Source: Elusimicrobiota bacterium (GTDB taxonomy: Bacteria; Elusimicrobiota; UBA8919). From it: a stretch of 64,000 nt of DNA. The notes beneath the pieces were generated by a model, which ran no database searches, was not told the DNA's origin, and saw nothing but the letters and a program-made list of their open reading frames with translations. The stretch is from NCBI GenBank assembly GCA_016928195.1, contig JAFGLF010000006.1, forward strand, positions 10,807 to 74,806, in the 5' to 3' direction. Shown one piece after another: positions 17,003-46,935 of this stretch. Numbering within the stretch: the stretch's first letter is position 1; the number at the start of each line of letters is the position of its first letter. The position numbers and the translations under genes are program-made.

Positions 17003-17470
17003 ATGTTACCAAAAAGAAAAAATTCATTGCGATTCAAGAACTGGAATTATAACCTGCCAGGACCATATTTTGTTACAGTTTGTATAGTTAATCGTAGGGG
17101 TGGACTTGTCCACACGCTATTTGAGCAAGAACCTGTGCGAAATTCTGTAATAGAAGTAATTAAAACCGTAGGGGCGGATTTATCCGCCCGAATTCACTGT
17201 ATGGTTATTGCAATAGACCATTTTCACATATTAGTTACCTTGCCGGATGGCAAGATAATTTCATTATCAAAACTTATAGCAATAATAAAAGTTCGTATAA
17301 CGCAATATTTTAGTCGGGCAGGTAAACCTGCCCCTACGCCGCCGAAAATTTGGCAAAGGTCATATTATGAACACATTATCAGAGATGAAAAGGATTTTTT
17401 ACAGAAAGCCAGATATATTGAAAACCATCCGGTAAAAGAAATTGGGAACGATTATGCTGAATGGCATTAA
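17003..17470 (+). mobile_element. REP-associated tyrosine transposase (RAYT, Y1 HUH family)
   Basis: RKNSLR..YFVTVC, HUH motif HFH, WQRSYYEHIIR, YIENHP; three internal GTAG-palindromes. Confidence 0.88.
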
Positions 17471-23300: not shown

Positions 23301-25524
23301 TAACGACAATATGCCTGATATCATGACGTATAATAACCACCAGATTACACAGGTTGGGACCCCGTCTCTTACAAATATAGCCCAGATAAAGATTGTTGTT
23401 GAAAATAATTCCGGTTTGGATATAGAGGACGGAAAAATCTGGGTAGACGAATTATATGTAGATGACGCATGGAAAGTAAAAGGTTATGCTCATAGGGAAA
23501 ATGCCGATTTTACAATCCCGGAGTGGGCGACATTCGGAGGAAAATATAAATATATTGACCGTAATTTTCAGACACTTACAACCCAGATTGCCAATCGTGA
23601 CTATGAAGAAAAGAGCGGATACTTTAAGATGCCTCAGATATGGTTTTTAAAACCGTCGATTTTTAACTGGATTTCTGTTCCGCTTGATACATCAGTTTCA
23701 AAGACATTAACAATAACACCCTCGTCCGTTCAAACGGGTGACCCGAATCTTGTTTCTATATTGGACGAAGGAAGGGTTGTGAATGTATCGGGCAATAGTT
23801 CAACTTCGGTTTCAATCAAAAAATTTCCCCAGCTCGGTGCATCATATTCCAAATCAATTACAGAAACAAAGAACTTATCGCAGCGTGATGAAAGTAATTC
23901 ATATAGCGGTAACCTGAGTTATACAAACCCTTTAAAGCTTTATGTTACTCCGAACAGTTTATCGGCATCCTATTCCAGAACCGATTCCTACAGGGGTTAT
24001 CCTGAGGAAGAAGAAACCGACTTTAAAGACTTATTCAGTAATATAACCACCTGGTATCTTTTGACATATACCAAGGATTATTCCGGCCAGGTGTCTTTTA
24101 CACCGCTTGGCTGGATGGAAACATGGGTTGGAATAATACCATTTTCTAATCTTTCACTTTCACCTAATTATAAATATACAATAACACGCGAAGAGAAACT
24201 TTTGTCCGATGATAAGATAACATGTTATCCTAAGAACGACTCTCAGACGGCTTCTGTTTCAAGTTCTTTCCGTATTTTTTCGTGGTTTCAACCATCCGCA
24301 TCCTATAGTTCTGGAATTACCCAGACATACGATCTTACGGCTTCAACTTATACTGGTACTGATTGGGATAGGCTTATTCAGGTAACTACCGGACAGATTG
24401 ATGCAGAAACAAAATCGGTTTCGAGAACAGCCAGCGGAGATGTTTCTGTTTCACTTATTCCTAAAAATATTGTTAAGTTTAAACCTATAAACTCTCTTTC
24501 GTTGAATGCATCCTATTCAATTTCCGACGGTGATTCCTACGAAAAAGTCAGCTCATCACTCACATCACGTACGGATGTATACAAGGAGTTATGGGTAAGG
24601 AAATCCATACCATTAGAAAGCCCGGCTGCCAAAAGAAAGTCATTGACTCTTTCGGATACGGTAAGGGGTAATGCCAGATGGTCGCCGTTTGAGTTTATAA
24701 AATTTCCGTCGCGGCTAACACCTATAGGAAATATAACAACAAGTTCTGCATATTCAAAAAGTGATAGAAGAGAAGAAACAACAGGAACTGTAAGCAAGAC
24801 GATTACGAAGAATTGGCCCGATATTACAGCAGGAATGCCTGGTACGGAAAAGTTCCTTTATTATATCGGTAAGTATGTATCTGATACTCATATAAATGTA
24901 AAATATACAAAAAGAACTACCGATGTATATGCCTCTACCGAACAGGTAAAATCCGATTGGACGGTTTCTAACTCTTATGATTACAGATTCAATGTTATAA
25001 GAAAGTTTGACTGTTTTTCATCATATAGCGTTTCAACCAATTTCAGCGAAGATTTAAGATTAAACAAAGTTACTGCTGACGGTAAGGCCCAGTCTGCATC
25101 CGGACAGATAGGCTATAGGTGGAGGGACTGGAGGCTCACTCCGAGATTTGACTGGACAAAAAGTGTAGAACTTGATGGCGAAGGTAAATTCATAAATGAT
25201 ACGTTAGGACGTACTTATTCACTTGGTATAAACTACGATGTTTCAAAACCTATTTTATGGAAAATACCGTTTACATCGACAATTCTTGAGCTTAAGAATC
25301 GTTTTACCGCAACCAGTAATTTAAAATATACACGAAACCATGACAGGGTTGAGGATAAAAACAACACAGACACATATACTATGTCAATGAGCGGTGATTA
25401 CACTATTTCCGATAATTTAAGAATGAATATCGGCTCGTCAGGTACATATTACAAATGCCGCACCTTGAAGCAGGACGACTACTATTCACTTGAAATCTCC
25501 TCCGCGCTTACCATTACTTTCTGA
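20329..25524 (+). CDS. SprA/Sov-like giant outer-membrane protein (T9SS translocon-like)
   Basis: Signal peptide; QQLQVRVKG..VDYDD..YKGDPDEIVQEAAFGDV, DYFIDYDSG, EDADGDGVLDTEDL recall SprA; beta-rich C-half ending in F. Confidence 0.7.
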   Translation: MKRIILIISIFLVLISSVPFVLGEEFDMDEWQKLRGQKEKKIFTDEKIETALPGTLHISSAPAVPEPTVPAILSEGIDLPYESKLAISGRKYIGMKYKTSKYLNEREDGKLAPSPSGFELNQQLQVRVKGTVKRKITVNVDYDDTVENKKDISIQYKGDPDEIVQEAAFGDVTLSLPGTEFVSYNKAAFGATTKLKYKRANAYAIFSRTKGTTETKRFTGSTTFEKEDINDTSYLRRKYYKLALDPSHLPIKPGSEKIYIDDKNAANNTIVTSSITVAQYNVWGSSVQATAELLYAGSDYTIDYERGVIVFRKTIEANYIIAVDYEKKDGTRVINDAPGGLYKMIKDESDNLQYELKNYYSIGRRKIVRDDNKGNFILQILDLNRKEVTRIDETAQNVNYPEYVEVDFEAGTFRFTDGTGNDAEPFPAATYAKSPTRSHIIYLEYRYRAKSYLVKPNIVPHSEKIMMNNKMLIRDVDYFIDYDSGFITFLNEEKITDSTVIEITYEWTPFGGQLDQTVVGFRGEYAPFDNFGFGSTFLYNFPAKPQTAPSVRSTPESIAVYEFDSRASFKNLPLQPSISGEYAGSVKNPNTYGNALIENMEGIKMISSMAINKLSWKYSANIAADVTEYDSLYWENVDVQNGIINPSVPEGERETNRQVLNIAYKLQTGKETSIIYSISRLGADYTKKLFLEVWMYGDGSGDDVTLSIGSLNEDADGDGVLDTEDLNSDGILNSGEDVGISFNHPSGVVTTIGSANGRIDTEDLDGDGILRRNDNILGSFGIANFVNSDGSLGFIDESGNQYTSISWTGWKHFILPLGDVSSWEAVKQVRITVKSTSGSSVYRNIQFAEISLVGNKWEKPVVTGTGINDKMTATAINNVDNTGYIPLYSYFPSLYEDLYNLDSNDLIDKKEQSLLLQYTLINGSKASTKVVFSRAEDYSKHRKLTYFLWGDDSKGATFKIQFGAESAYFEHTITPNWTGWGKIVLELIDINNDNMPDIMTYNNHQITQVGTPSLTNIAQIKIVVENNSGLDIEDGKIWVDELYVDDAWKVKGYAHRENADFTIPEWATFGGKYKYIDRNFQTLTTQIANRDYEEKSGYFKMPQIWFLKPSIFNWISVPLDTSVSKTLTITPSSVQTGDPNLVSILDEGRVVNVSGNSSTSVSIKKFPQLGASYSKSITETKNLSQRDESNSYSGNLSYTNPLKLYVTPNSLSASYSRTDSYRGYPEEEETDFKDLFSNITTWYLLTYTKDYSGQVSFTPLGWMETWVGIIPFSNLSLSPNYKYTITREEKLLSDDKITCYPKNDSQTASVSSSFRIFSWFQPSASYSSGITQTYDLTASTYTGTDWDRLIQVTTGQIDAETKSVSRTASGDVSVSLIPKNIVKFKPINSLSLNASYSISDGDSYEKVSSSLTSRTDVYKELWVRKSIPLESPAAKRKSLTLSDTVRGNARWSPFEFIKFPSRLTPIGNITTSSAYSKSDRREETTGTVSKTITKNWPDITAGMPGTEKFLYYIGKYVSDTHINVKYTKRTTDVYASTEQVKSDWTVSNSYDYRFNVIRKFDCFSSYSVSTNFSEDLRLNKVTADGKAQSASGQIGYRWRDWRLTPRFDWTKSVELDGEGKFINDTLGRTYSLGINYDVSKPILWKIPFTSTILELKNRFTATSNLKYTRNHDRVEDKNNTDTYTMSMSGDYTISDNLRMNIGSSGTYYKCRTLKQDDYYSLEISSALTITF

Positions 25525-25663
25525 TTTTTTTCTTGACTTTTTCCGGTTATTTTATAAAATAGTAAAAATGAGTAAGAAATTGAAGGATTTAAAGATTCAA
25601 AAATTAAATCCGGCAATGGAAAACTGATTTTTTTAATCTTTTAGTTGTTTTTATGGAGGTTCA

Positions 25664-26710
25664 ATGCGTGTAGGTATTAATGGTTTTGGCAGGATAGGCA
25701 GGCTGGTTGCAAGAGTAATACTTGAAAGGAACAACAAGAACATGGAACTTGTTGCGGTAAATGATTTGTTTGATGCAAAGGCAAATGCACACCTTTTAAA
25801 GTATGATTCCGTTCATGGTCAGTTTCCGGGAGATGTGAAAGCCGAAGGTTCCGATGTGATTTCGGTCAACGGTAAAAAGATAAAGGTTCTTAAAAAGAAA
25901 GACCCGACTGAACTTCCGTGGAAGGATCTGGGTGTTGAAGTCGTCGTTGAATCGACCGGACTCTTTTTGCTGAAAAAGGACGGCGTTAATAAAAAAGGCA
26001 AAGAGGTAAAAGGTGCTGAAAATCACATAACAAAGGGCGGTGCTAAAAAAGTTGTTATTTCCGCGCCTGCTCAGGGTGAAGATTTAACTGTGGTTTTGGG
26101 TGTCAATGATGATAAATATGATCCCAAAAACCATCATGTCGTTTCAAATGCTTCGTGTACTACAAACTGTCTGGCACCAGTCGCAAAGGTTATTAATGAT
26201 AACTGGGGAATCGAAAAAGGTCTTATGACAACAATACATGCTTATACCAACGATCAGAGAGTACAGGATATGGCACATTCCGATATGCGCCGTGCCCGTG
26301 CTGCTGCCGTTTCAATGATTCCTACAACTACTGGTGCTGCAAAAGCAATCGGACTTGTAATTCCGGAACTCAAGGGAAAACTGGACGGTTTTGCAATCCG
26401 TGTTCCGACCCCTAACGTTTCTGTTGTTGATTTATCCGCTACTTTAAAGAAAAAAGCGACAGCTGAAGAAATAAATGCTGCATTGAAGGCAGCATCTGAA
26501 GGTAAGATGAAAGGGTATTTGGGTTATTCAGAAGAACCCCTTGTTTCGATTGATTTCAATCATTGCCCGCTTTCGTCGGTTGCAGACCCTCAATTTACCA
26601 AAGTTATTGACGGTAACTTCGTAAAGGTACTTGCCTGGTATGACAACGAATGGGGATATTCCAACAGAGTAATCGACCTGATCGAATTCATGATGAAAAA
26701 AGGTATATAA
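25664..26710 (+). CDS. gap: Glyceraldehyde-3-phosphate dehydrogenase type I
   Basis: [28 protein letters not shown]. Confidence 0.98.
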
Positions 26711-26804
26711 TGGAGGCAGTTAAGAAGATTAAAAGATTAAAAGATTAGAAAAATTAAAATCTTTCAATCTTTCGAATTTTCCCAATCTTTTTAATTGATT
26801 TTAA
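26711..26804 (+). repeat. TGGAGG + 81-nt AAAGATTAA/TTCAATCTT periodic hairpin
   Basis: Near-identical copy at 30322-30418; looser copy at about 25575-25645. Confidence 0.85.
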
Positions 26805-28037
26805 ATGCCAAAACTTACGATTCGTGATATTGATTTAAAAAATAAAAAGATTTTGATGCGTGCGGATTATAATGTTCCTTTGGATAAATCCTCGCCGCGG
26901 CAGATTACCGATGATACAAGAATAAAGGAATCAATTCCGACCATAAAGCATCTTATCGGGCAGGGCTGTAGTCTTATTCTGTGTTCCCATTTGGGTCGCC
27001 CAAAAGGCAAGGCGTTGCCTGAGTTTTCACTTAAGCCGGTTGCTGAGCGTCTGTCAGAATTGCTTGGACAGGAAGTAAACCCCCACACCAATGGACAGTC
27101 TATTGGTGTGAGGGTAAAATTTGCATCCGACTGTGTCGGAGATGAAGTAAAAAAGCTTGCCGGAAGTTTAAAACCAAAGGATATATTATTGCTTGAAAAC
27201 CTGAGGTTTCATCCTGAAGAGGAAAAGAACAACGAAAATTTTGCCAAACAGCTTTCTGAATTGGCGGAGTTCTTTGTTCAGGATGCATTTGGGACTGTTC
27301 ACCGTGCCCATGCCTCAACAGCAGGTGTAAATAAATTTTTGCCTTCCGCAGCCGGATTTCTCCTTGAAAAAGAAATAAAGTACTTGGGTGATTCGCTGCA
27401 GAATCCCAAGAGACCTTTTGTCGCGATTTTAGGCGGTGCAAAAGTTTCGGATAAAATCGGCGTAATCGAAAATCTTATACCTAAGGTTGATGCCATAATT
27501 ATCGGCGGTGCAATGGCATATACGTTTCTAAAAGCTCAAGGTATACGAGTGGGAAGTTCCCGTGTTGAAGAAGATAAACTGGAAGTAGCAAAGGAGATTT
27601 GTAAAAAATCCGGTAAGATTACATTTCTTTTACCGGTTGACCATGTTATTGCCGACAAGCTTGATAAAGCCGCAAATGTAGAAAATACAAACGGTATTGA
27701 AATCAAAGACGGCTGGATGGGTGTTGATATAGGTGATTCCTCGATATCAAGATATTGTACTGTAATACTGTCGGCAAAGACGATTGTTTTAAACGGACCT
27801 ATGGGTGTTTTTGAGATTGATAGGTTTGCTAAAGGGACAAATGCAATTTCATATGCTATTGCCGATGCAACTTCAAACGGAGCTGTTTCAATCATCGGCG
27901 GCGGTGACAGTGTGTCTGCGGTCAAGAAAGCCGGTCTGGCAGAAAAGATGTCGCATATTTCTACAGGCGGCGGAGCTTCCCTTGAATTCCTGGAAGGAAA
28001 AGAACTTCCCGGAATTGCTGCATTAAAGGATAAGTAA
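26805..28037 (+). CDS. pgk: Phosphoglycerate kinase
   Basis: RADYNVP, SHLGRP, LLENLRF, GGAKVSDK, STGGGASLE. Confidence 0.98.
   Translation: MPKLTIRDIDLKNKKILMRADYNVPLDKSSPRQITDDTRIKESIPTIKHLIGQGCSLILCSHLGRPKGKALPEFSLKPVAERLSELLGQEVNPHTNGQSIGVRVKFASDCVGDEVKKLAGSLKPKDILLLENLRFHPEEEKNNENFAKQLSELAEFFVQDAFGTVHRAHASTAGVNKFLPSAAGFLLEKEIKYLGDSLQNPKRPFVAILGGAKVSDKIGVIENLIPKVDAIIIGGAMAYTFLKAQGIRVGSSRVEEDKLEVAKEICKKSGKITFLLPVDHVIADKLDKAANVENTNGIEIKDGWMGVDIGDSSISRYCTVILSAKTIVLNGPMGVFEIDRFAKGTNAISYAIADATSNGAVSIIGGGDSVSAVKKAGLAEKMSHISTGGGASLEFLEGKELPGIAALKDK
27080..27114. mobile_element. 35-bp palindromic mini-element in frame in pgk
   Basis: TAAA duplicated at 27076-79 and 27115-18; 39 bp net = NPHTNGQSIGVRV. 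Confidence 0.9.
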
Positions 28038-28043
28038 CCACTC

Positions 28044-28139
28044 GGGAAAACTTTTTTTGAGCCGCTCGGCACCAGCTCGCTCGGAGATTTGCTCGTGAAT
28101 GTATAGTCGCAAATCGAGGCTCTTCAAAAAGTGTTTCCC
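28044..28139. repeat. About 95-bp imperfect inverted repeat
   Basis: GGGAAAACTTTTTTTGAGCC ... GGCTCTTCAAAAAGTGTTTCCC. Confidence 0.6.
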
Positions 28140-28168
28140 TCGCAGAGATATAAAAGTGGGAGGGGTAA

Positions 28169-29053
28169 ATGCGAAAAGCTATTTTTATTTTTGGATTACT
28201 GTTTGTAAGTGTATCCTTTTGTTCTGCTGAACCTTATGACTATCTGGCAAAGAGAATATCAAAAGGTGCAAAAAAACTGACCAATAAAAAAGTTGCTGTT
28301 TTACCCTTTCAATACTATGACGGAAGAAAATCCCCGGGTTCCAATATTGTATCCGAACATCTGATAACAAAAATTGTGGAACGGGGAAAACTTCAGGTTG
28401 TTGAAAGAGCATTACTTAACAAGATTATGGATGAAATGAAACTGGAACAGTCGGGTGTTATCGACCAGGAAACCACAAAGGAATTGGGTAAGGTTTTGGG
28501 TGTTGAAGCCGTAGTAACAGGAACATTGATTGAAGAAACAGATTCCGAATGGGTTAATATAAATACAAGGCTTATAAAAGTGGAAACAGGAGACATTCTG
28601 GTTGCGGCAAGCAAAGAAGTAAAAAAGACATGGGAAGATGCGACTTTTTCTGTAGTAGAAGATACACCGGAAGAAAAGACAGAAGAGTCACCGGCACATG
28701 AGCCGGACATGAAAGTTGAGGAACCTGAATCGATTAAAATAGGTCCGGGTGACGGAGAAAAAAAAATACCTGAAGCTATAGTGGAATTAAAGAAAAGTCA
28801 TAATCTTTTTAAAGCAAAGCGCTATAAAATGGCAATAGATGAAGCAAAAAATGTTTTGAAGAAATATTCCGATAAGCCTGTTGTAGCGTCACGCGCTTTG
28901 TTTATTATTGGTAGATCGCATGAGTTCCTAAAACAACCCAGGATGGCCAGAGCCGCCTACATAAAAATAATTAAAGACTATCCTTTAAATACCAAGGCAG
29001 TAAAGGGAGCACAAGAACGTCTGCGTTATCTTGATCGGGGACAGAGACGGTAA
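28169..29053 (+). CDS. Exported CsgG/FlgO-like domain protein with C-terminal TPR
   Basis: Signal peptide; VAVLPF..VVER..ELGKVLGVEAVVTG..RLIKVETG; TPR-like helices. Confidence 0.7.
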   Translation: MRKAIFIFGLLFVSVSFCSAEPYDYLAKRISKGAKKLTNKKVAVLPFQYYDGRKSPGSNIVSEHLITKIVERGKLQVVERALLNKIMDEMKLEQSGVIDQETTKELGKVLGVEAVVTGTLIEETDSEWVNINTRLIKVETGDILVAASKEVKKTWEDATFSVVEDTPEEKTEESPAHEPDMKVEEPESIKIGPGDGEKKIPEAIVELKKSHNLFKAKRYKMAIDEAKNVLKKYSDKPVVASRALFIIGRSHEFLKQPRMARAAYIKIIKDYPLNTKAVKGAQERLRYLDRGQRR

Positions 29054-29073
29054 AATAAATAAGGTAAGGTAAA

Positions 29074-29108
29074 CCCCCACACCAATAGAACGACCATTGG
29101 TGTGGGGG
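29074..29108. mobile_element. 35-bp palindromic mini-element, intergenic
   Basis: TAAA at 29070-73 and 29109-12. Confidence 0.9.
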
Positions 29109-29118
29109 TAAATAAATT

Positions 29119-30321
29119 ATGATAGAACAGGAATTTTTAAAAAAACTTTCGGTAAAAACAGATACAAAGATTGTTATGCTTGTAATGGACGGATTGGGCG
29201 GATGTCAGAATGAATCCGGTGAGACTGAAATTGAAACAGCAAAACATCCGAATCTTGATAATCTTGCAAAAATTTCCATCTGCGGGCTTTCCGACCCTGT
29301 TTCTCCCGGTATAACCCCGGGTAGCGGACCTTCGCATCTTGCGCTTTTCGGATACGACCCGCTTAAGTATGAGATAGGACGCGGTCTTCTGGATACGTTG
29401 GGTATAGATTTCGAGTTTACCGCTGATGATTTGGCAGCCAGAGGGAATTTTTGCACTGTTAACGAAAAAGGTGTTATCACCGATAGGCGTGCCGGCAGAA
29501 TACCCACGGAAAAAAATATTGAAATCTGTAAAAAGCTGGATGGAATGGAGATTGACAGTGTAAAGATTTTTGTAAAAACGGTTAAAGAACACAGATTTTC
29601 GGTAATTTTCAGAGGTAAAAATCTTTCTGACAAACTGCAGGATTCTGACCCGCAGAAGGAGGGGCTGGAACCGCTTGATGTTATTGTAACGGAAAAGTCC
29701 GCCGAACCATCTGCGAAAATAGTAAATAAATTTGTCCAAAAGGTTAAAGAAGTTCTGAAGGATGAAAAGCCTGCCAATATGGTGCTTTTGCGAGGTTTTT
29801 CAAAAATGGTGGCCCTTCCGAAGTTTCAGGATATATATAAACTTACACCTGCCTGTATTGCAATATATCCTATGTATAAAGGGCTTGCACAGCTTTGTGG
29901 GATGGAAGTAATAAAATCCGGCGATACAATTGAAACAGAATTTGCAACACTCAAGGAAAATTTTTCTAAATATGACTTTTTTTATGTTCATATAAAGCAG
30001 ACCGATTCTTCGGGTGAAGACGGGGATTTTAATAGGAAAGTAAGGGTTATTGAACAGGTTGATAAATCAATACCCATACTGACAGGTCTTAATCCCGATG
30101 TTATAATAATAACAGGTGATCATTCGACACCCGCAGTTATCGGTGCTCATTCATGGCATTCTGTTCCTGTGCTAATTTACTCGAAGAAATGCAGATTTGA
30201 TAAAGTTGAAAAATTTTCAGAAACCGAATTTATTTCCGGTGGATTAGGCAGAATTTTAGCAAGGGATATAATGCCCATTGCTTTAAGCAATGCCGGCAAA
30301 CTTTTAAAATATGGAGCATAG
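29119..30321 (+). CDS. apgM: 2,3-bisphosphoglycerate-independent phosphoglycerate mutase (ApgM type)
   Basis: DGLGG, PGSGPSHLALFGYDP, RGNF, DRRAGRI, TGDHSTP. Confidence 0.92.
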   Translation: MIEQEFLKKLSVKTDTKIVMLVMDGLGGCQNESGETEIETAKHPNLDNLAKISICGLSDPVSPGITPGSGPSHLALFGYDPLKYEIGRGLLDTLGIDFEFTADDLAARGNFCTVNEKGVITDRRAGRIPTEKNIEICKKLDGMEIDSVKIFVKTVKEHRFSVIFRGKNLSDKLQDSDPQKEGLEPLDVIVTEKSAEPSAKIVNKFVQKVKEVLKDEKPANMVLLRGFSKMVALPKFQDIYKLTPACIAIYPMYKGLAQLCGMEVIKSGDTIETEFATLKENFSKYDFFYVHIKQTDSSGEDGDFNRKVRVIEQVDKSIPILTGLNPDVIIITGDHSTPAVIGAHSWHSVPVLIYSKKCRFDKVEKFSETEFISGGLGRILARDIMPIALSNAGKLLKYGA

Positions 30322-30418
30322 TGGAGGCAATTAAAAGATTAGAAAATTAAAAGATTAAAAAAATTAAAATCTTTCAATTTTTCAAATTTTTCCAATCTTT
30401 TTAATTGATTTTATTTAA
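30322..30418 (+). repeat. TGGAGG + 80-nt AAAGATTAA periodic hairpin
   Basis: Copy of 26711-26804. Confidence 0.85.
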
Positions 30419-30760
30419 ATGTATGGTTTTGTTTTGACTATTCATATTATAGTAAGTGTAGGTTTAATTTTGATTGTACTTTTGCAAGCTGGTAAGGGTG
30501 CAGGAATTTCCGGACTTTTCGGAGGGGGAAGTAATGATTCGGCTTTCAGCGGGGCTACCACACCGGGTGTTATTAAAAAGATTACAACCACAATGGCTGT
30601 GTTGTTTATGATAACGTCTTTAGCTTTAACGGTCATTATAGCAAAATCCAGAAGAAGGTCTTTGGCTGAAACTATACCTGTTGCTCAGCCCACACAGCAA
30701 CAGCAGCAGCCAGCCCCGTCTCCATCAGGTCCGGATGCTGTGCCACCGGCACAAGAGTAG
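30419..30760 (+). CDS. secG: Preprotein translocase subunit SecG
   Basis: VLLQAGKGAGISGLFGGG, two TMs. Confidence 0.95.
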   Translation: MYGFVLTIHIIVSVGLILIVLLQAGKGAGISGLFGGGSNDSAFSGATTPGVIKKITTTMAVLFMITSLALTVIIAKSRRRSLAETIPVAQPTQQQQQPAPSPSGPDAVPPAQE

Positions 30761-30839
30761 AGAGACAGACCGCGAAGGATGAGGGACGAGAGACGAAACA
30801 TCGTCCATCTTCCGTCGTCCATCGCATCCGGCGTTAATT

Positions 30840-30921
30840 GCTGGGGTGGCGGAATTGGTATACGCGCACGTTTGAGGGGCGTGTGGAGAAATCCGTGCGG
30901 GTTCAAGTCCCGCCCCCAGCA
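30840..30921 (+). tRNA. tRNA-Leu(GAG), CCA not encoded
   Basis: Acceptor GCTGGGG/CCCCAGC, anticodon loop TTGAGGG, long variable arm, TTCAAGT T-loop. Confidence 0.95.
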
Positions 30922-30941
30922 TTCCTGTCCAAAATAAAATA

Positions 30942-32558
30942 ATGTCATTAATAAAAGTAACTTTTCAACCCGATAACTCTGCAGTTTTTGTCCCCGCAGG
31001 AACAACCTTAAAAGATGCTGCCGTACTTGCCGGTATATTGACCGATTTCCCCTGCGGTGCCCAGGGTAAATGCGGAAAGTGTAAGGTATGGGTAAAAGAA
31101 GGTTTGTTTAGGCCTAATTTGGCAGAAAAAAAACTACTTTCGTTAAATGAATTAAAAAAAAACATACGGCTTGCATGCCAGGCAAAAGTTAAATCCGATA
31201 CCGTTGTTTTTGTTCCCAAAAAGTCTCAGGTAAACAGAAAAAAATTGCTGATTTCACCGATATATAAAAAGGTTAAAGTAAAAAGGAAATTTCGCCCTAA
31301 TTATGGACTAGCACTGGATATCGGAACTACAAGTGTATCCGGGGTTTTGATTGATTTGAATACAAACAGAGAGTTATCGGTAGTATCGGAAACAAACACA
31401 CAGTTGGTTTATGGTGCAGATGTAATTTCGAGGATAAATCACGCTGTCAGTAATGATAACGGTTTATCGGATCTGCAGCAGAAAATAATAGGAGTAATAA
31501 ATAGAATTATAGATAGACTTTCGATTGAATCCCGTATAAATAAAACGGATATAAATGATGTAACTGTAGTTGGTAATACCGCAATGCAGCATTTTTTAAT
31601 GGGATTTAGTGTGAAAGGTTTGGCAGCATTACCCTTTGAACCTACATGCAAAGACCATATCAATGTAAAAGCGAAAAGACTGAAAATAAAGGTTAATCCC
31701 GAGGCAGACATATATATATTTCCGTGTATAGCAGGTTTTATCGGCGGCGACACCGTAGGGATGATCCTGGCTCTGAATTTACATCGCAACAAAGGAGTAA
31801 ACCTGGCAATAGATATAGGGACAAACGGCGAGATAGTTCTGGGTTCAAAAGAGAAACTCTTGTGTACTTCGACTGCTGCTGGTCCCGCATTTGAAGGTGC
31901 ACATATTTCCTGCGGGATGAGAGCAGTAGAATCCGCAATAGAATCGGTTTACGTTTCCAATGAAGGTGTTTTTTGTAGAACAATAGGCGATGTTAGTGCG
32001 GAAGGTATTTGCGGGTCCGGATTGATAGACATAGCCGCAGAATTAGTGAAGTTCGGTATAGTCGATAAAATGGGCAGGTTTATAGATAAAAACATTGGAT
32101 TGGCTCCTGCTTTGCTGAATTTACTGATACAGCGTAATGGACAGAGTGCGTTTCTTATTGCTGAGGATAAAATAAAAAATAAAAAGATTTTTCTCAGTCA
32201 GAAAGACATTAGAGAGTTACAGCTGGCAAAAGGTGCCATATATAGCGGGATACAGATTTTAAAAACAGAACTAGGTGTAAATAATATCAACATTAAACGT
32301 TTGTTTATATCGGGGACATTTGGAAATTACATAGACAAAAAAAACGCACAGGTTATAGGATTAATGCCCGATATGCCTTTGGAAAAAGTAGTGTTTGTAG
32401 GCAACGCAGCTTTAGCAGGTGCGAAACTTGCATTGGTATCTCCCGGTACACGGAGAGAGATAGAAACTATTATTAAAAAAGTGGAGTATATAGAACTTTC
32501 TGTTCGTCCTGATTTTAATAGTGAGTTTGTTAAATCAATGCAGTTTAGATCATGTTAA
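30942..32558 (+). CDS. Reductive activator of corrinoid proteins (ASKHA, RACo/RamA-like) with 2Fe-2S domain
   Basis: CGAQGKCGKC..RLACQ; DIGTT, GADVISR, DIGTNGE, GPAFEG, DIRELQLAK. Confidence 0.9.
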   Translation: MSLIKVTFQPDNSAVFVPAGTTLKDAAVLAGILTDFPCGAQGKCGKCKVWVKEGLFRPNLAEKKLLSLNELKKNIRLACQAKVKSDTVVFVPKKSQVNRKKLLISPIYKKVKVKRKFRPNYGLALDIGTTSVSGVLIDLNTNRELSVVSETNTQLVYGADVISRINHAVSNDNGLSDLQQKIIGVINRIIDRLSIESRINKTDINDVTVVGNTAMQHFLMGFSVKGLAALPFEPTCKDHINVKAKRLKIKVNPEADIYIFPCIAGFIGGDTVGMILALNLHRNKGVNLAIDIGTNGEIVLGSKEKLLCTSTAAGPAFEGAHISCGMRAVESAIESVYVSNEGVFCRTIGDVSAEGICGSGLIDIAAELVKFGIVDKMGRFIDKNIGLAPALLNLLIQRNGQSAFLIAEDKIKNKKIFLSQKDIRELQLAKGAIYSGIQILKTELGVNNINIKRLFISGTFGNYIDKKNAQVIGLMPDMPLEKVVFVGNAALAGAKLALVSPGTRREIETIIKKVEYIELSVRPDFNSEFVKSMQFRSC

Positions 32559-46833: not shown

Positions 46834-46935
46834 AAAAAACGATGTAGACAGATAAAAAAGCAGATTCAGACAGATAATTTATATGTATAAGGCCGTTAGC
46901 CATCTGTTTGAATCCGTAAGTTATCTGCTTGAATT

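Follow-up and report, generated by a model that had tools for sequence, protein, structure and literature searches.

Shine-Dalgarno (SD) sequences that are too distant from their start codon in the linear mRNA are known from genes 25 and 38 of phage T4, where mutation and probing demonstrated that a hairpin shortens the distance between SD and AUG from 27 to 11 nt and from 22 to 5 nt, respectively (Nivinskas 1999; Malys and Nivinskas 2009, both as summarized in the review PMC3014915). A comparable layout is found at two places in a 64,000-nt stretch of DNA, hereafter the window, from an Elusimicrobiota bacterium (assembly GCA_016928195.1, contig JAFGLF010000006.1, positions 10,807 to 74,806), where pgk and secG are each preceded by an SD sequence, an inverted array of short tandem words and a short tail reaching to the ATG. 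As in the T4 genes, of which gene 25 is likewise intercistronic in the account given by the review, the linear SD is too far away, matches the 16S rRNA tail without a nearer competitor and would be brought back to about 5–11 nt by a predicted stem-loop. In contrast to the single, gene-specific T4 hairpins, however, the structure described here is a dispersed repeat of 60–125 nt with conserved ends, lying in front of dozens of genes in several genera.

A second likeness is to the intervening sequences (IVS) of 23S rRNA. In the portion of the Coxiella burnetii literature considered here (PMC4990558), the IVS appears as a selfish element with inverted arms around an optional gene, the product of which belongs to the protein family PF05635 in those IVS that bear an open reading frame (ORF). 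A resemblance of this protein to Avd of diversity-generating retroelements is described in PMC10053308. The present family likewise comprises ORF-less and ORF-bearing forms with the same arms, one copy carrying a PF05635 ORF between them, whereas its members lie between protein genes and not in helix 25 or 45, have arms made of tandem words and show a directional frame; the two window copies are ORF-less, and one of 33 copies resides in an rRNA operon spacer. Direct repeats of the TAACTGA type, found near start codons in Beggiatoaceae, Cyanobacteria and Bacteroidetes, are of unknown function according to the part of their description drawn on here (PMC4679880). With the present arrays they share tandem words of 7–8 nt placed a few nucleotides from the starts of essential genes, including ribosomal-protein genes, but as far as that description goes they are mostly direct, overlap the place of the SD and belong to genes that are mostly SD-less, whereas the arrays described here (period 8–9 by Tandem Repeats Finder, TRF) form inverted pairs and thereby a hairpin, end 7–11 nt before the start and have the SD at the 5′ foot. 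The cyanobacterial short tandemly repeated repetitive sequences (STRR) are a further class of heptamer repeats next to start codons. Miniature inverted-repeat transposable elements (MITEs) and repetitive extragenic palindromic (REP) elements, the latter with their REP-associated tyrosine transposases (RAYT), are small, dispersed, palindromic and ORF-less and have a longer, ORF-bearing relative. The element resembles them by its terminal inverted repeats (CAATTAAAAG...CTTTTTAATTG) at 33 dispersed loci and differs in that its partner encodes PF05635 and no known transposase, the only Y1 transposase-like gene of the genome being unlinked. Target-site duplications were not seen around the element, whose left flank is a purine run and whose right flank is RNKTTAYY, so that the two do not form a direct repeat. 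In the literature covered, with subscription journals outside the coverage, no account was found of a dispersed SD-hairpin-AUG element with a conserved frame. New are the directional frame, the tail carried by the element, the way in which foot SD and own SD complement each other in position, and the return of the layout at orthologous junctions with different arms.

Anatomy of the cassettes before pgk and secG

The preliminary description of the window had drawn attention to one and the same cassette after gap and after apgM, and re-reading the sequence confirmed its coordinates and letters to the base (Table 1). From GGAGG to ATG the linear distance is 88 nt for pgk and 91 nt for secG, which is reduced to 7 and 11 nt when the stems are folded. 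These are predicted to close at 26717/26797 and 30328/30407, and the stem base of the secG copy is predicted to be paired (first 8 nt 0.01 unpaired). The arms consist of TTAAAAGA (4.8 copies) and AATCTTTC (3.9 copies) before pgk, with the element ends CAGTTAAG...TTAATTG, and of AATTAAAA (5.0 copies) and AATTTTTC (4.5 copies) before secG, with the ends CAATTAAAAG...TTAATTG. Across the aligned stretch the two cassettes are 87% identical, and the 20 nt that they share at the 3′ end are present two times in the window, with 0.10 occurrences expected. Both spacers are devoid of G and the SD score between hairpin and start is 0 for secG; the earlier statement that no other SD is near either start thus holds, as no SD-like word lies between hairpin and ATG. 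Pfam supports the identities of gap, pgk, apgM and secG, with a gene for a CsgG/FlgO-like lipoprotein between pgk and apgM, and the N-termini of both pgk and secG are conserved among relatives. Moreover, DNA contigs of one public study span the gap|pgk cassette without differences (26638–28092).

Taken singly, each hairpin only moderately beats chance. When folded as plus-strand RNA, the pgk copy reaches −25.9 kcal/mol (z −3.9) with none of 200 shuffles being equally good, while the secG copy shows a z of −1.1 with 29 of 200 shuffles doing as well; among 300 dinucleotide shuffles, 14 matched the 26 Watson-Crick pairs of the pgk copy and 15 the 27 pairs of the secG copy. These modest values are due to the AT-rich sequence, and the hairpin is accepted as genuine because 33 loci share inverted word arrays and CAATT...AATTG ends. 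A search of Rfam over 25500–31500 at E ≤ 1 matched solely a tRNA-Leu (30840–30921) and nothing on the cassettes, and a promoter scan gave nothing beyond chance at them (12 promoter-like sites versus 12.3 expected).

Table 1. Features of the gap-pgk and apgM-secG junctions in window coordinates.
Feature	Position	Strand	Remarks
gap (glyceraldehyde-3-phosphate dehydrogenase)	25664..26710	+	ORF list; Pfam Gp_dh_N/Gp_dh_C
gap stop TAA	26708-26710	+	ends 1 nt 5′ of SD GGAGG
GGAGG, sole SD-like word of pgk	26712..26716	+	adjoins hairpin 5′ foot; 16S-tail duplex −9.3 kcal/mol
81-nt inverted word-array element before pgk, ORF-less copy of IVS-like family	26717..26797	+	
7-nt tail ATTTTAA, variant of element-borne RNKTTAYY motif	26798..26804	+	pgk ATG next
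pgk (phosphoglycerate kinase), ATG 26805	26805..28037	+	ORF list, Pfam
37-nt GC-rich palindrome (ACCCCCACACCAAT...) before apgM, another dispersed family	29073..29109	+	
apgM (cofactor-independent phosphoglycerate mutase)	29119..30321	+	ORF list, Pfam
apgM stop TAG	30319-30321	+	ends 1 nt 5′ of SD GGAGG
GGAGG, sole SD-like word of secG	30323..30327	+	adjoins hairpin 5′ foot; 16S-tail duplex −9.3 kcal/mol
80-nt inverted word-array element before secG, same family as 26717-26797	30328..30407	+	
11-nt tail ATTTTATTTAA 5′ of secG ATG	30408..30418	+	
secG, ATG 30419	30419..30760	+	ORF list, Pfam

A dispersed family with a PF05635-bearing copy and a common frame

The genome search for more copies that had been suggested at the outset turned out positive, with the pgk and secG cassettes representing two of 33 copies of an AT-rich element. 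In the genome to which the window belongs (G000; 2.37 Mb in 87 contigs, 37.7% G+C), BLAST with the cassettes gave 71 matches and an iterated nhmmer search converged at 33 loci. Each arm is composed of 4–5 tandem words of about 8 nt (TRF), AAAGATT-like on the left and AATCTTT-like on the right, and across the family the element begins and ends with CAATTRAAAG...CTTTYAATTG. On contig C30 (10801–11290, minus strand) the same AAAGATT/AATCTTT arms enclose a 120-aa ORF matching PF05635 (23S_rRNA_IVP, 117.9 bits), located between two genes which, judged by eye, we take to be ispD and ispF. It is nearly certain that the pgk and secG cassettes are copies of a dispersed IVS-like element. The genome has five intact PF05635 genes, and every one of them stands between inverted arrays of a word family of its own. 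In the C30 copy, both the final codons and stop of the upstream gene (…KEDIKILKD) and the start of the PF05635 ORF (MKVERFE) come from left-arm words. Another PF05635 gene, at C62:301456-301783, is interrupted by a TAG, gives two matches and has GGCAGTAGG words alongside; it would seem to be an ORF-bearing copy in decay, from the GC-rich word family that is most abundant. A reverse transcriptase was not found in the genome.

Several word families share one frame, consisting of a purine-rich or SD-like foot, CAR...YTG, RNKTTAYY and ATG. The signature YTG-RNKTTAYY-ATG occurs 22 times versus 4 times in the reversed genome, and 19 of these matches sit behind hairpins of at least 4 words (AAAGATT, GGCAGTA, GTGAGTAA and GCAGAAGA). 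On its 5′ side, the frame shows a stop codon followed by 4–7 purines, mostly ending in GG, and then CAR. Among 20 framed cassettes the successive tail positions are A in 70%, T in 55%, G/T in 80%, T in 80%, T in 90%, A in 90%, T in 60% and T in 80%, whereas spacers behind ordinary SDs contain about 45–50% A at every position and carry no positional signal. The tail is also present where no ATG comes next, i.e., before a tRNA, after the tRNA of the rRNA operon and before a second SD, with two further cases in relatives of a tail not directly preceding ATG, and hence belongs to the element.

Inverted word-array hairpins of other kinds are numerous in the intergenic gaps of this genome. At apgM, AAGGTAAGG stops 3 nt 5′ of the 37-nt palindrome, which is followed by 9 nt (AAATAAATT) and the ATG, so that a third, weaker split layout is present in the same gene row; this palindrome seems to represent a separate REP-like family, as it also occurs in the gaps C17:5801-5962 and C39:39759-39829. 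At about 46849–46935 of the window, a 508-aa ORF is preceded by a CA...TG-framed 79-nt hairpin (CAGATAAAAAAGCAGA...GTTATCTG), with CTTGAATT as the 8 nt between hairpin and ATG; no clear SD is seen in the left flank of this hairpin (GATGTAGA). In the spacer between pgk and the lipoprotein gene (28038–28165), GCTCG words make up a different repeat, after which come an ordinary SD (GGGAGGGG), 3 nt and the ATG; spacers with similar GCTCG words precede pgk or secG in three relatives (G001, G002 and G003). Another word-array hairpin (GAGAGAC/GACGAGAGACG words; 30761–30838) occupies the gap from the secG stop to tRNA-Leu (GAG; 30839–30922), and elements therefore also abut tRNA genes. In an rRNA operon (C39:94153-96772), A-rich and T-rich word arrays flank the 16S gene (94465–96018), and downstream of this gene there is a tRNA with a complete AT-rich element behind it; this arrangement may link the elements to rRNA processing stems. 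Besides, a 155-aa ORF at 17003–17470 (plus strand) matches Y1_Tnp (PF01797, 38.7 bits) and has a RAYT/IS200-like look; within its flanks, neither word arrays nor matching palindromes are present.

Placement of the SD sequence in the genome and its relatives

The placement of the 33 copies was read by eye along the direction of the downstream gene. Fifteen copies show the strict order of upstream stop, G-containing SD-like purine run, hairpin, 5–11 nt and ATG of a long ORF, two follow it loosely, eight lie upstream of an ordinary SD, two are beside tRNAs and six are unclear. Strict copies precede pgk and secG as well as genes that presumably encode, as judged by eye from their N-termini, L24, L6, L20, KsgA, TrkA, NadB and a Clp ATPase. 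An automated pass, limited to copies with exact CARTT...AAYTG ends and no more than 70 nt to an ORF, retained 15 of the 33. Ten of them adjoin a start (7–11 nt), all with an SD-like foot and eight at ≤ −4.5 kcal/mol against the 16S tail; among the other five, an SD-like foot was present once, in a compound hairpin that by eye does adjoin a start, and two of these five non-adjoining copies have a strong SD of their own after the element. The left flank varies in length and sequence; G-rich forms (GGAGG, GGGGG, AGAGG) go with the abutting copies, and most of the remaining copies have an A-rich one.

With a 16S rRNA ending in GGATCACCTCCTTT (...CACCTCCTTT), i.e., a canonical anti-SD, and SD-like 4-mers peaking 9–13 nt 5′ of the starts of longest ORFs, the organism evidently uses SD sites; 42% of the genes without hairpin have an SD at ≤ −4.5. 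Folding of the 230 nt upstream of every gene was uninformative, as a hairpin appeared at nearly every gene, and was replaced by folds restricted to the intergenic gap, unbranched and with Watson-Crick pairs only. At a threshold of at least 14 pairs, 359 of 1021 gaps gave a hairpin versus 210–224 in dinucleotide shuffles, and at least 24 pairs were found in 168 gaps versus 45 in shuffles. Since the looser counts are diluted by this chance background, we rely on the set with at least 24 pairs (158 gaps) and on the frame pattern. Between the 3′ foot of these hairpins and the start, the most frequent distance is 8–9 nt (35 of the 158 gaps). When the spacer measures 6–11 nt (n = 60), an SD-like foot is present in 29 cases at ≤ −3 and in 18 at ≤ −4.5, and an own SD in only 3 and 2, respectively; the mirror control gave 0 and 0 and a control 20 nt upstream 14 and 10. 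When the hairpin is at least 16 nt away from the start (n = 64), the corresponding values are 17 and 6 for the foot and 45 and 36 for an own SD after the hairpin, with 9 and 2 in the mirror control and 11 and 2 in the control 20 nt upstream. Thus, the 5′ foot takes over the position of the SD when the hairpin adjoins the start.

The pgk start was compared in ten genomes of the same family (G001 to G010) and one of the same order but another family (G011). A split layout (GGAGG, hairpin, 8 nt, ATG) with unrelated arms recurs in three of the former, all from other genera, and in the latter. In G009 and G008 it reads TAAC-GGAGG-CAGT...ACTG-GTTTTACC or GTGTTACT-ATG, with arms unrelated to those in the window, in G001 GAGGAGGAGG-CGGTG...CGCTG-AAGTAATT-ATG and in G011 GGGAGG-CAATC...GATTG-AACATACT-ATG. 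As for the remaining family members, G007 has an AT-rich hairpin and then its own GGGGG, five (G004, G010, G002, G005 and G003) have ordinary SDs, and in G006 the ATG comes straight after AGAGGAATATA without a hairpin. Of five genomes compared at the secG start, two (G004 and G008) show the split layout, built from other words; in G009 and G001 the hairpin is accompanied by an own SD, and G010 is without a large hairpin. Scanning the surroundings of the L24 gene in nine relatives (about 159 kb) yielded 13 CA...TG-framed hairpins with spacers of 6–11 nt, 12 of them with an SD-like foot and their 8-nt tails following R-T-R-T-T-A-A-N.

The scan was extended to 301 genomes of the phylum with a strict form of the frame (GGCAR, 50–80 nt, YTG-RNKTTAYY-ATG). 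The genome of the window gave 14 matches, some being overlapping registers of one site, versus none in the backwards control. Nine of the ten same-family genomes have matches (38 versus 3 in the control, by our own tally), and G011 has 2 versus 0. Outside the family, 54 of 290 genomes gave mostly single matches, about twice the control (likewise our own tally), and by eye only a few (G211, G127) represent word-array hairpins. The frame is therefore a trait of this family and its closest kin, and the arms change even among members of one genus.

Possible use of the proposed split site and competing explanations

In the reading that we favour, the cassette is a gene-less copy of a dispersed palindromic element with arms of about 8-nt tandem words, whose frame makes up, in about half of the copies, the entire intercistronic spacer (stop, 1–7 nt, SD, hairpin, about 8 nt, ATG). 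Folding of the stem on the mRNA would bring the SD to 7–11 nt from the AUG, and the 30S subunit, or a ribosome just terminated at the adjacent stop, could then initiate as at an ordinary site. Re-initiation coupling is a natural variant because the upstream stop lies only 1–7 nt before the foot; a terminating ribosome would open the stem base and occupy the SD while the stem refolds. A portable split ribosome-binding site had been one of the proposals of the preliminary description. Its portability is substantiated by the 33 copies, the SD-like foot, the 8-nt tail and the recurrence in relatives, while stem formation in vivo and use of the foot SD through folding are what we infer from the sequence. 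The chances that the split site is actually used are about even, and the statement as a whole, that a T4 25/38-like portable split site is carried by a dispersed IVS-like element, stands at an equal balance for and against.

Several observations weigh against this reading or lend it no support. A search of public runs listed no RNA run containing this DNA, and the two RNA runs of the one study that contains it as DNA cover neither cassette, giving only short pieces of 90–95% likeness over the conserved 3′ part of gap. Mismatches in the stems are unbiased, with sense G.U versus A.C at 71 versus 71 for hairpins 4–13 nt from a start and at 15 versus 13 for framed hairpins, and for want of a G.U excess the palindromes resemble products made at the DNA level and not stems selected in the sense RNA. 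The flanks are no more open than shuffled ones (0.60 versus 0.54, p 0.09; 0.50 versus 0.52, p 0.5). In T4, the split sites shorten the SD-AUG distance by only 16–17 nt, whereas here an 80-nt hairpin would stand between the SD helix and the P site. Furthermore, the hairpin caller has the high chance background given above, and for 29 to 40 of the 60 strong hairpins adjoining a start, neither place offers an SD-like word; with only about 42% of the genes having an SD, SD-less initiation must be common in this genome. Finally, two framed cassettes in relatives (G008, G004) have an SD-like foot plus their own SD after the hairpin, and as the foot persists there, part of the apparent SD may be the purine-rich end of the element. 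Many of these points, namely the hairpins SD-less at both places, the limited SD usage, the equality of G.U and A.C, the foot beside an own SD and the flank openness, would also suit a purely selfish passenger that fills gaps, with the genes starting SD-less from an A/U-rich leader and the foot being a purine end or relic. Such a passenger is a possible, yet clearly less probable, explanation, since the foot is G-rich in abutting copies but A-rich and GG-less in most copies followed by an own SD, the mirror control gave 0 of 60, GGAGG before pgk is kept in five genomes with unrelated arms, and SD-like feet among abutting hairpins (30% at ≤ −4.5) come near the general usage of 42%.

An RNA-excised spacer, also among the early proposals, has gained some plausibility by analogy alone, as the PF05635-bearing form is like the IVS cut from 23S rRNA by RNase III. 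RNase III would here cut the stem and split the gene row into mRNAs, the downstream one starting near the 8-nt tail. In the section of PMC4990558 concerned, the Coxiella IVS is excised by RNase III. This enzyme is encoded in the present genome as well, the conserved tail could act as an SD-less leader, and one copy follows a tRNA within the rRNA operon. Nevertheless, such processing is unlikely, as cutting parts the foot SD from the AUG and leaves the SD placement unexplained, except if both halves were kept together by the lower stem, and the AT-rich stems contain many mismatches. Even more doubtful is a reading that goes beyond the split site itself, in which each word family would be read by its own PF05635 (Avd-like four-helix-bundle) paralogue, an oligomer binding the 4–5 words of one arm on the mRNA and setting stem closure and thereby the approach of the SD to the AUG, so that word families would be translational regulons, installed in the intercistronic spacers of core operons by the portable split site and each served by one trans-acting protein; it is allowed by the five PF05635 genes with different words, the many ORF-less copies and the frame being kept while words turn over. 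The mini-ORFs at the upstream stops read exactly as first noted, TAATG and TAGTG opening frames of 12 and 9 codons in the two window copies, and had suggested a switch in which translation across the stop into the 5′ arm controls folding. Their incidental nature follows from an overlapping start codon in only 3 of 11 abutting family copies and in none of the six split pgk or secG cassettes of relatives, and the peptides are simply the words read in frame, which makes the switch very improbable. To an equally slight degree do we credit a leaky intrinsic terminator or attenuator made of the stem and a U-rich tail (AUUUUA). The tail is indeed U-rich in the AT-rich family, but it is AAGTTATT or ACGTTATT in other word families, and the terminator scan called no site at either cassette (5 terminator-like sites versus 5.6 expected). 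Ribosomal-protein genes need similar dosage, and cassettes lie between many of them.

With the favoured portable split site, a geometry otherwise known as two curiosities of phage T4 is encountered on a repeat that is mobile or evolves fast, in front of dozens of core genes in several genera, and many core genes may need RNA folding for their translation. If the stems are needed, this lineage would tolerate or exploit helices of 60–125 nt within the initiation complex, gene finders seeking an SD within 20 nt would mis-score such starts, and a testable connection to translation would emerge for the PF05635/IVS protein family. If they are dispensable, the cassettes would show how exactly a selfish element can be fitted into a compact operon in which no other nucleotides are free.

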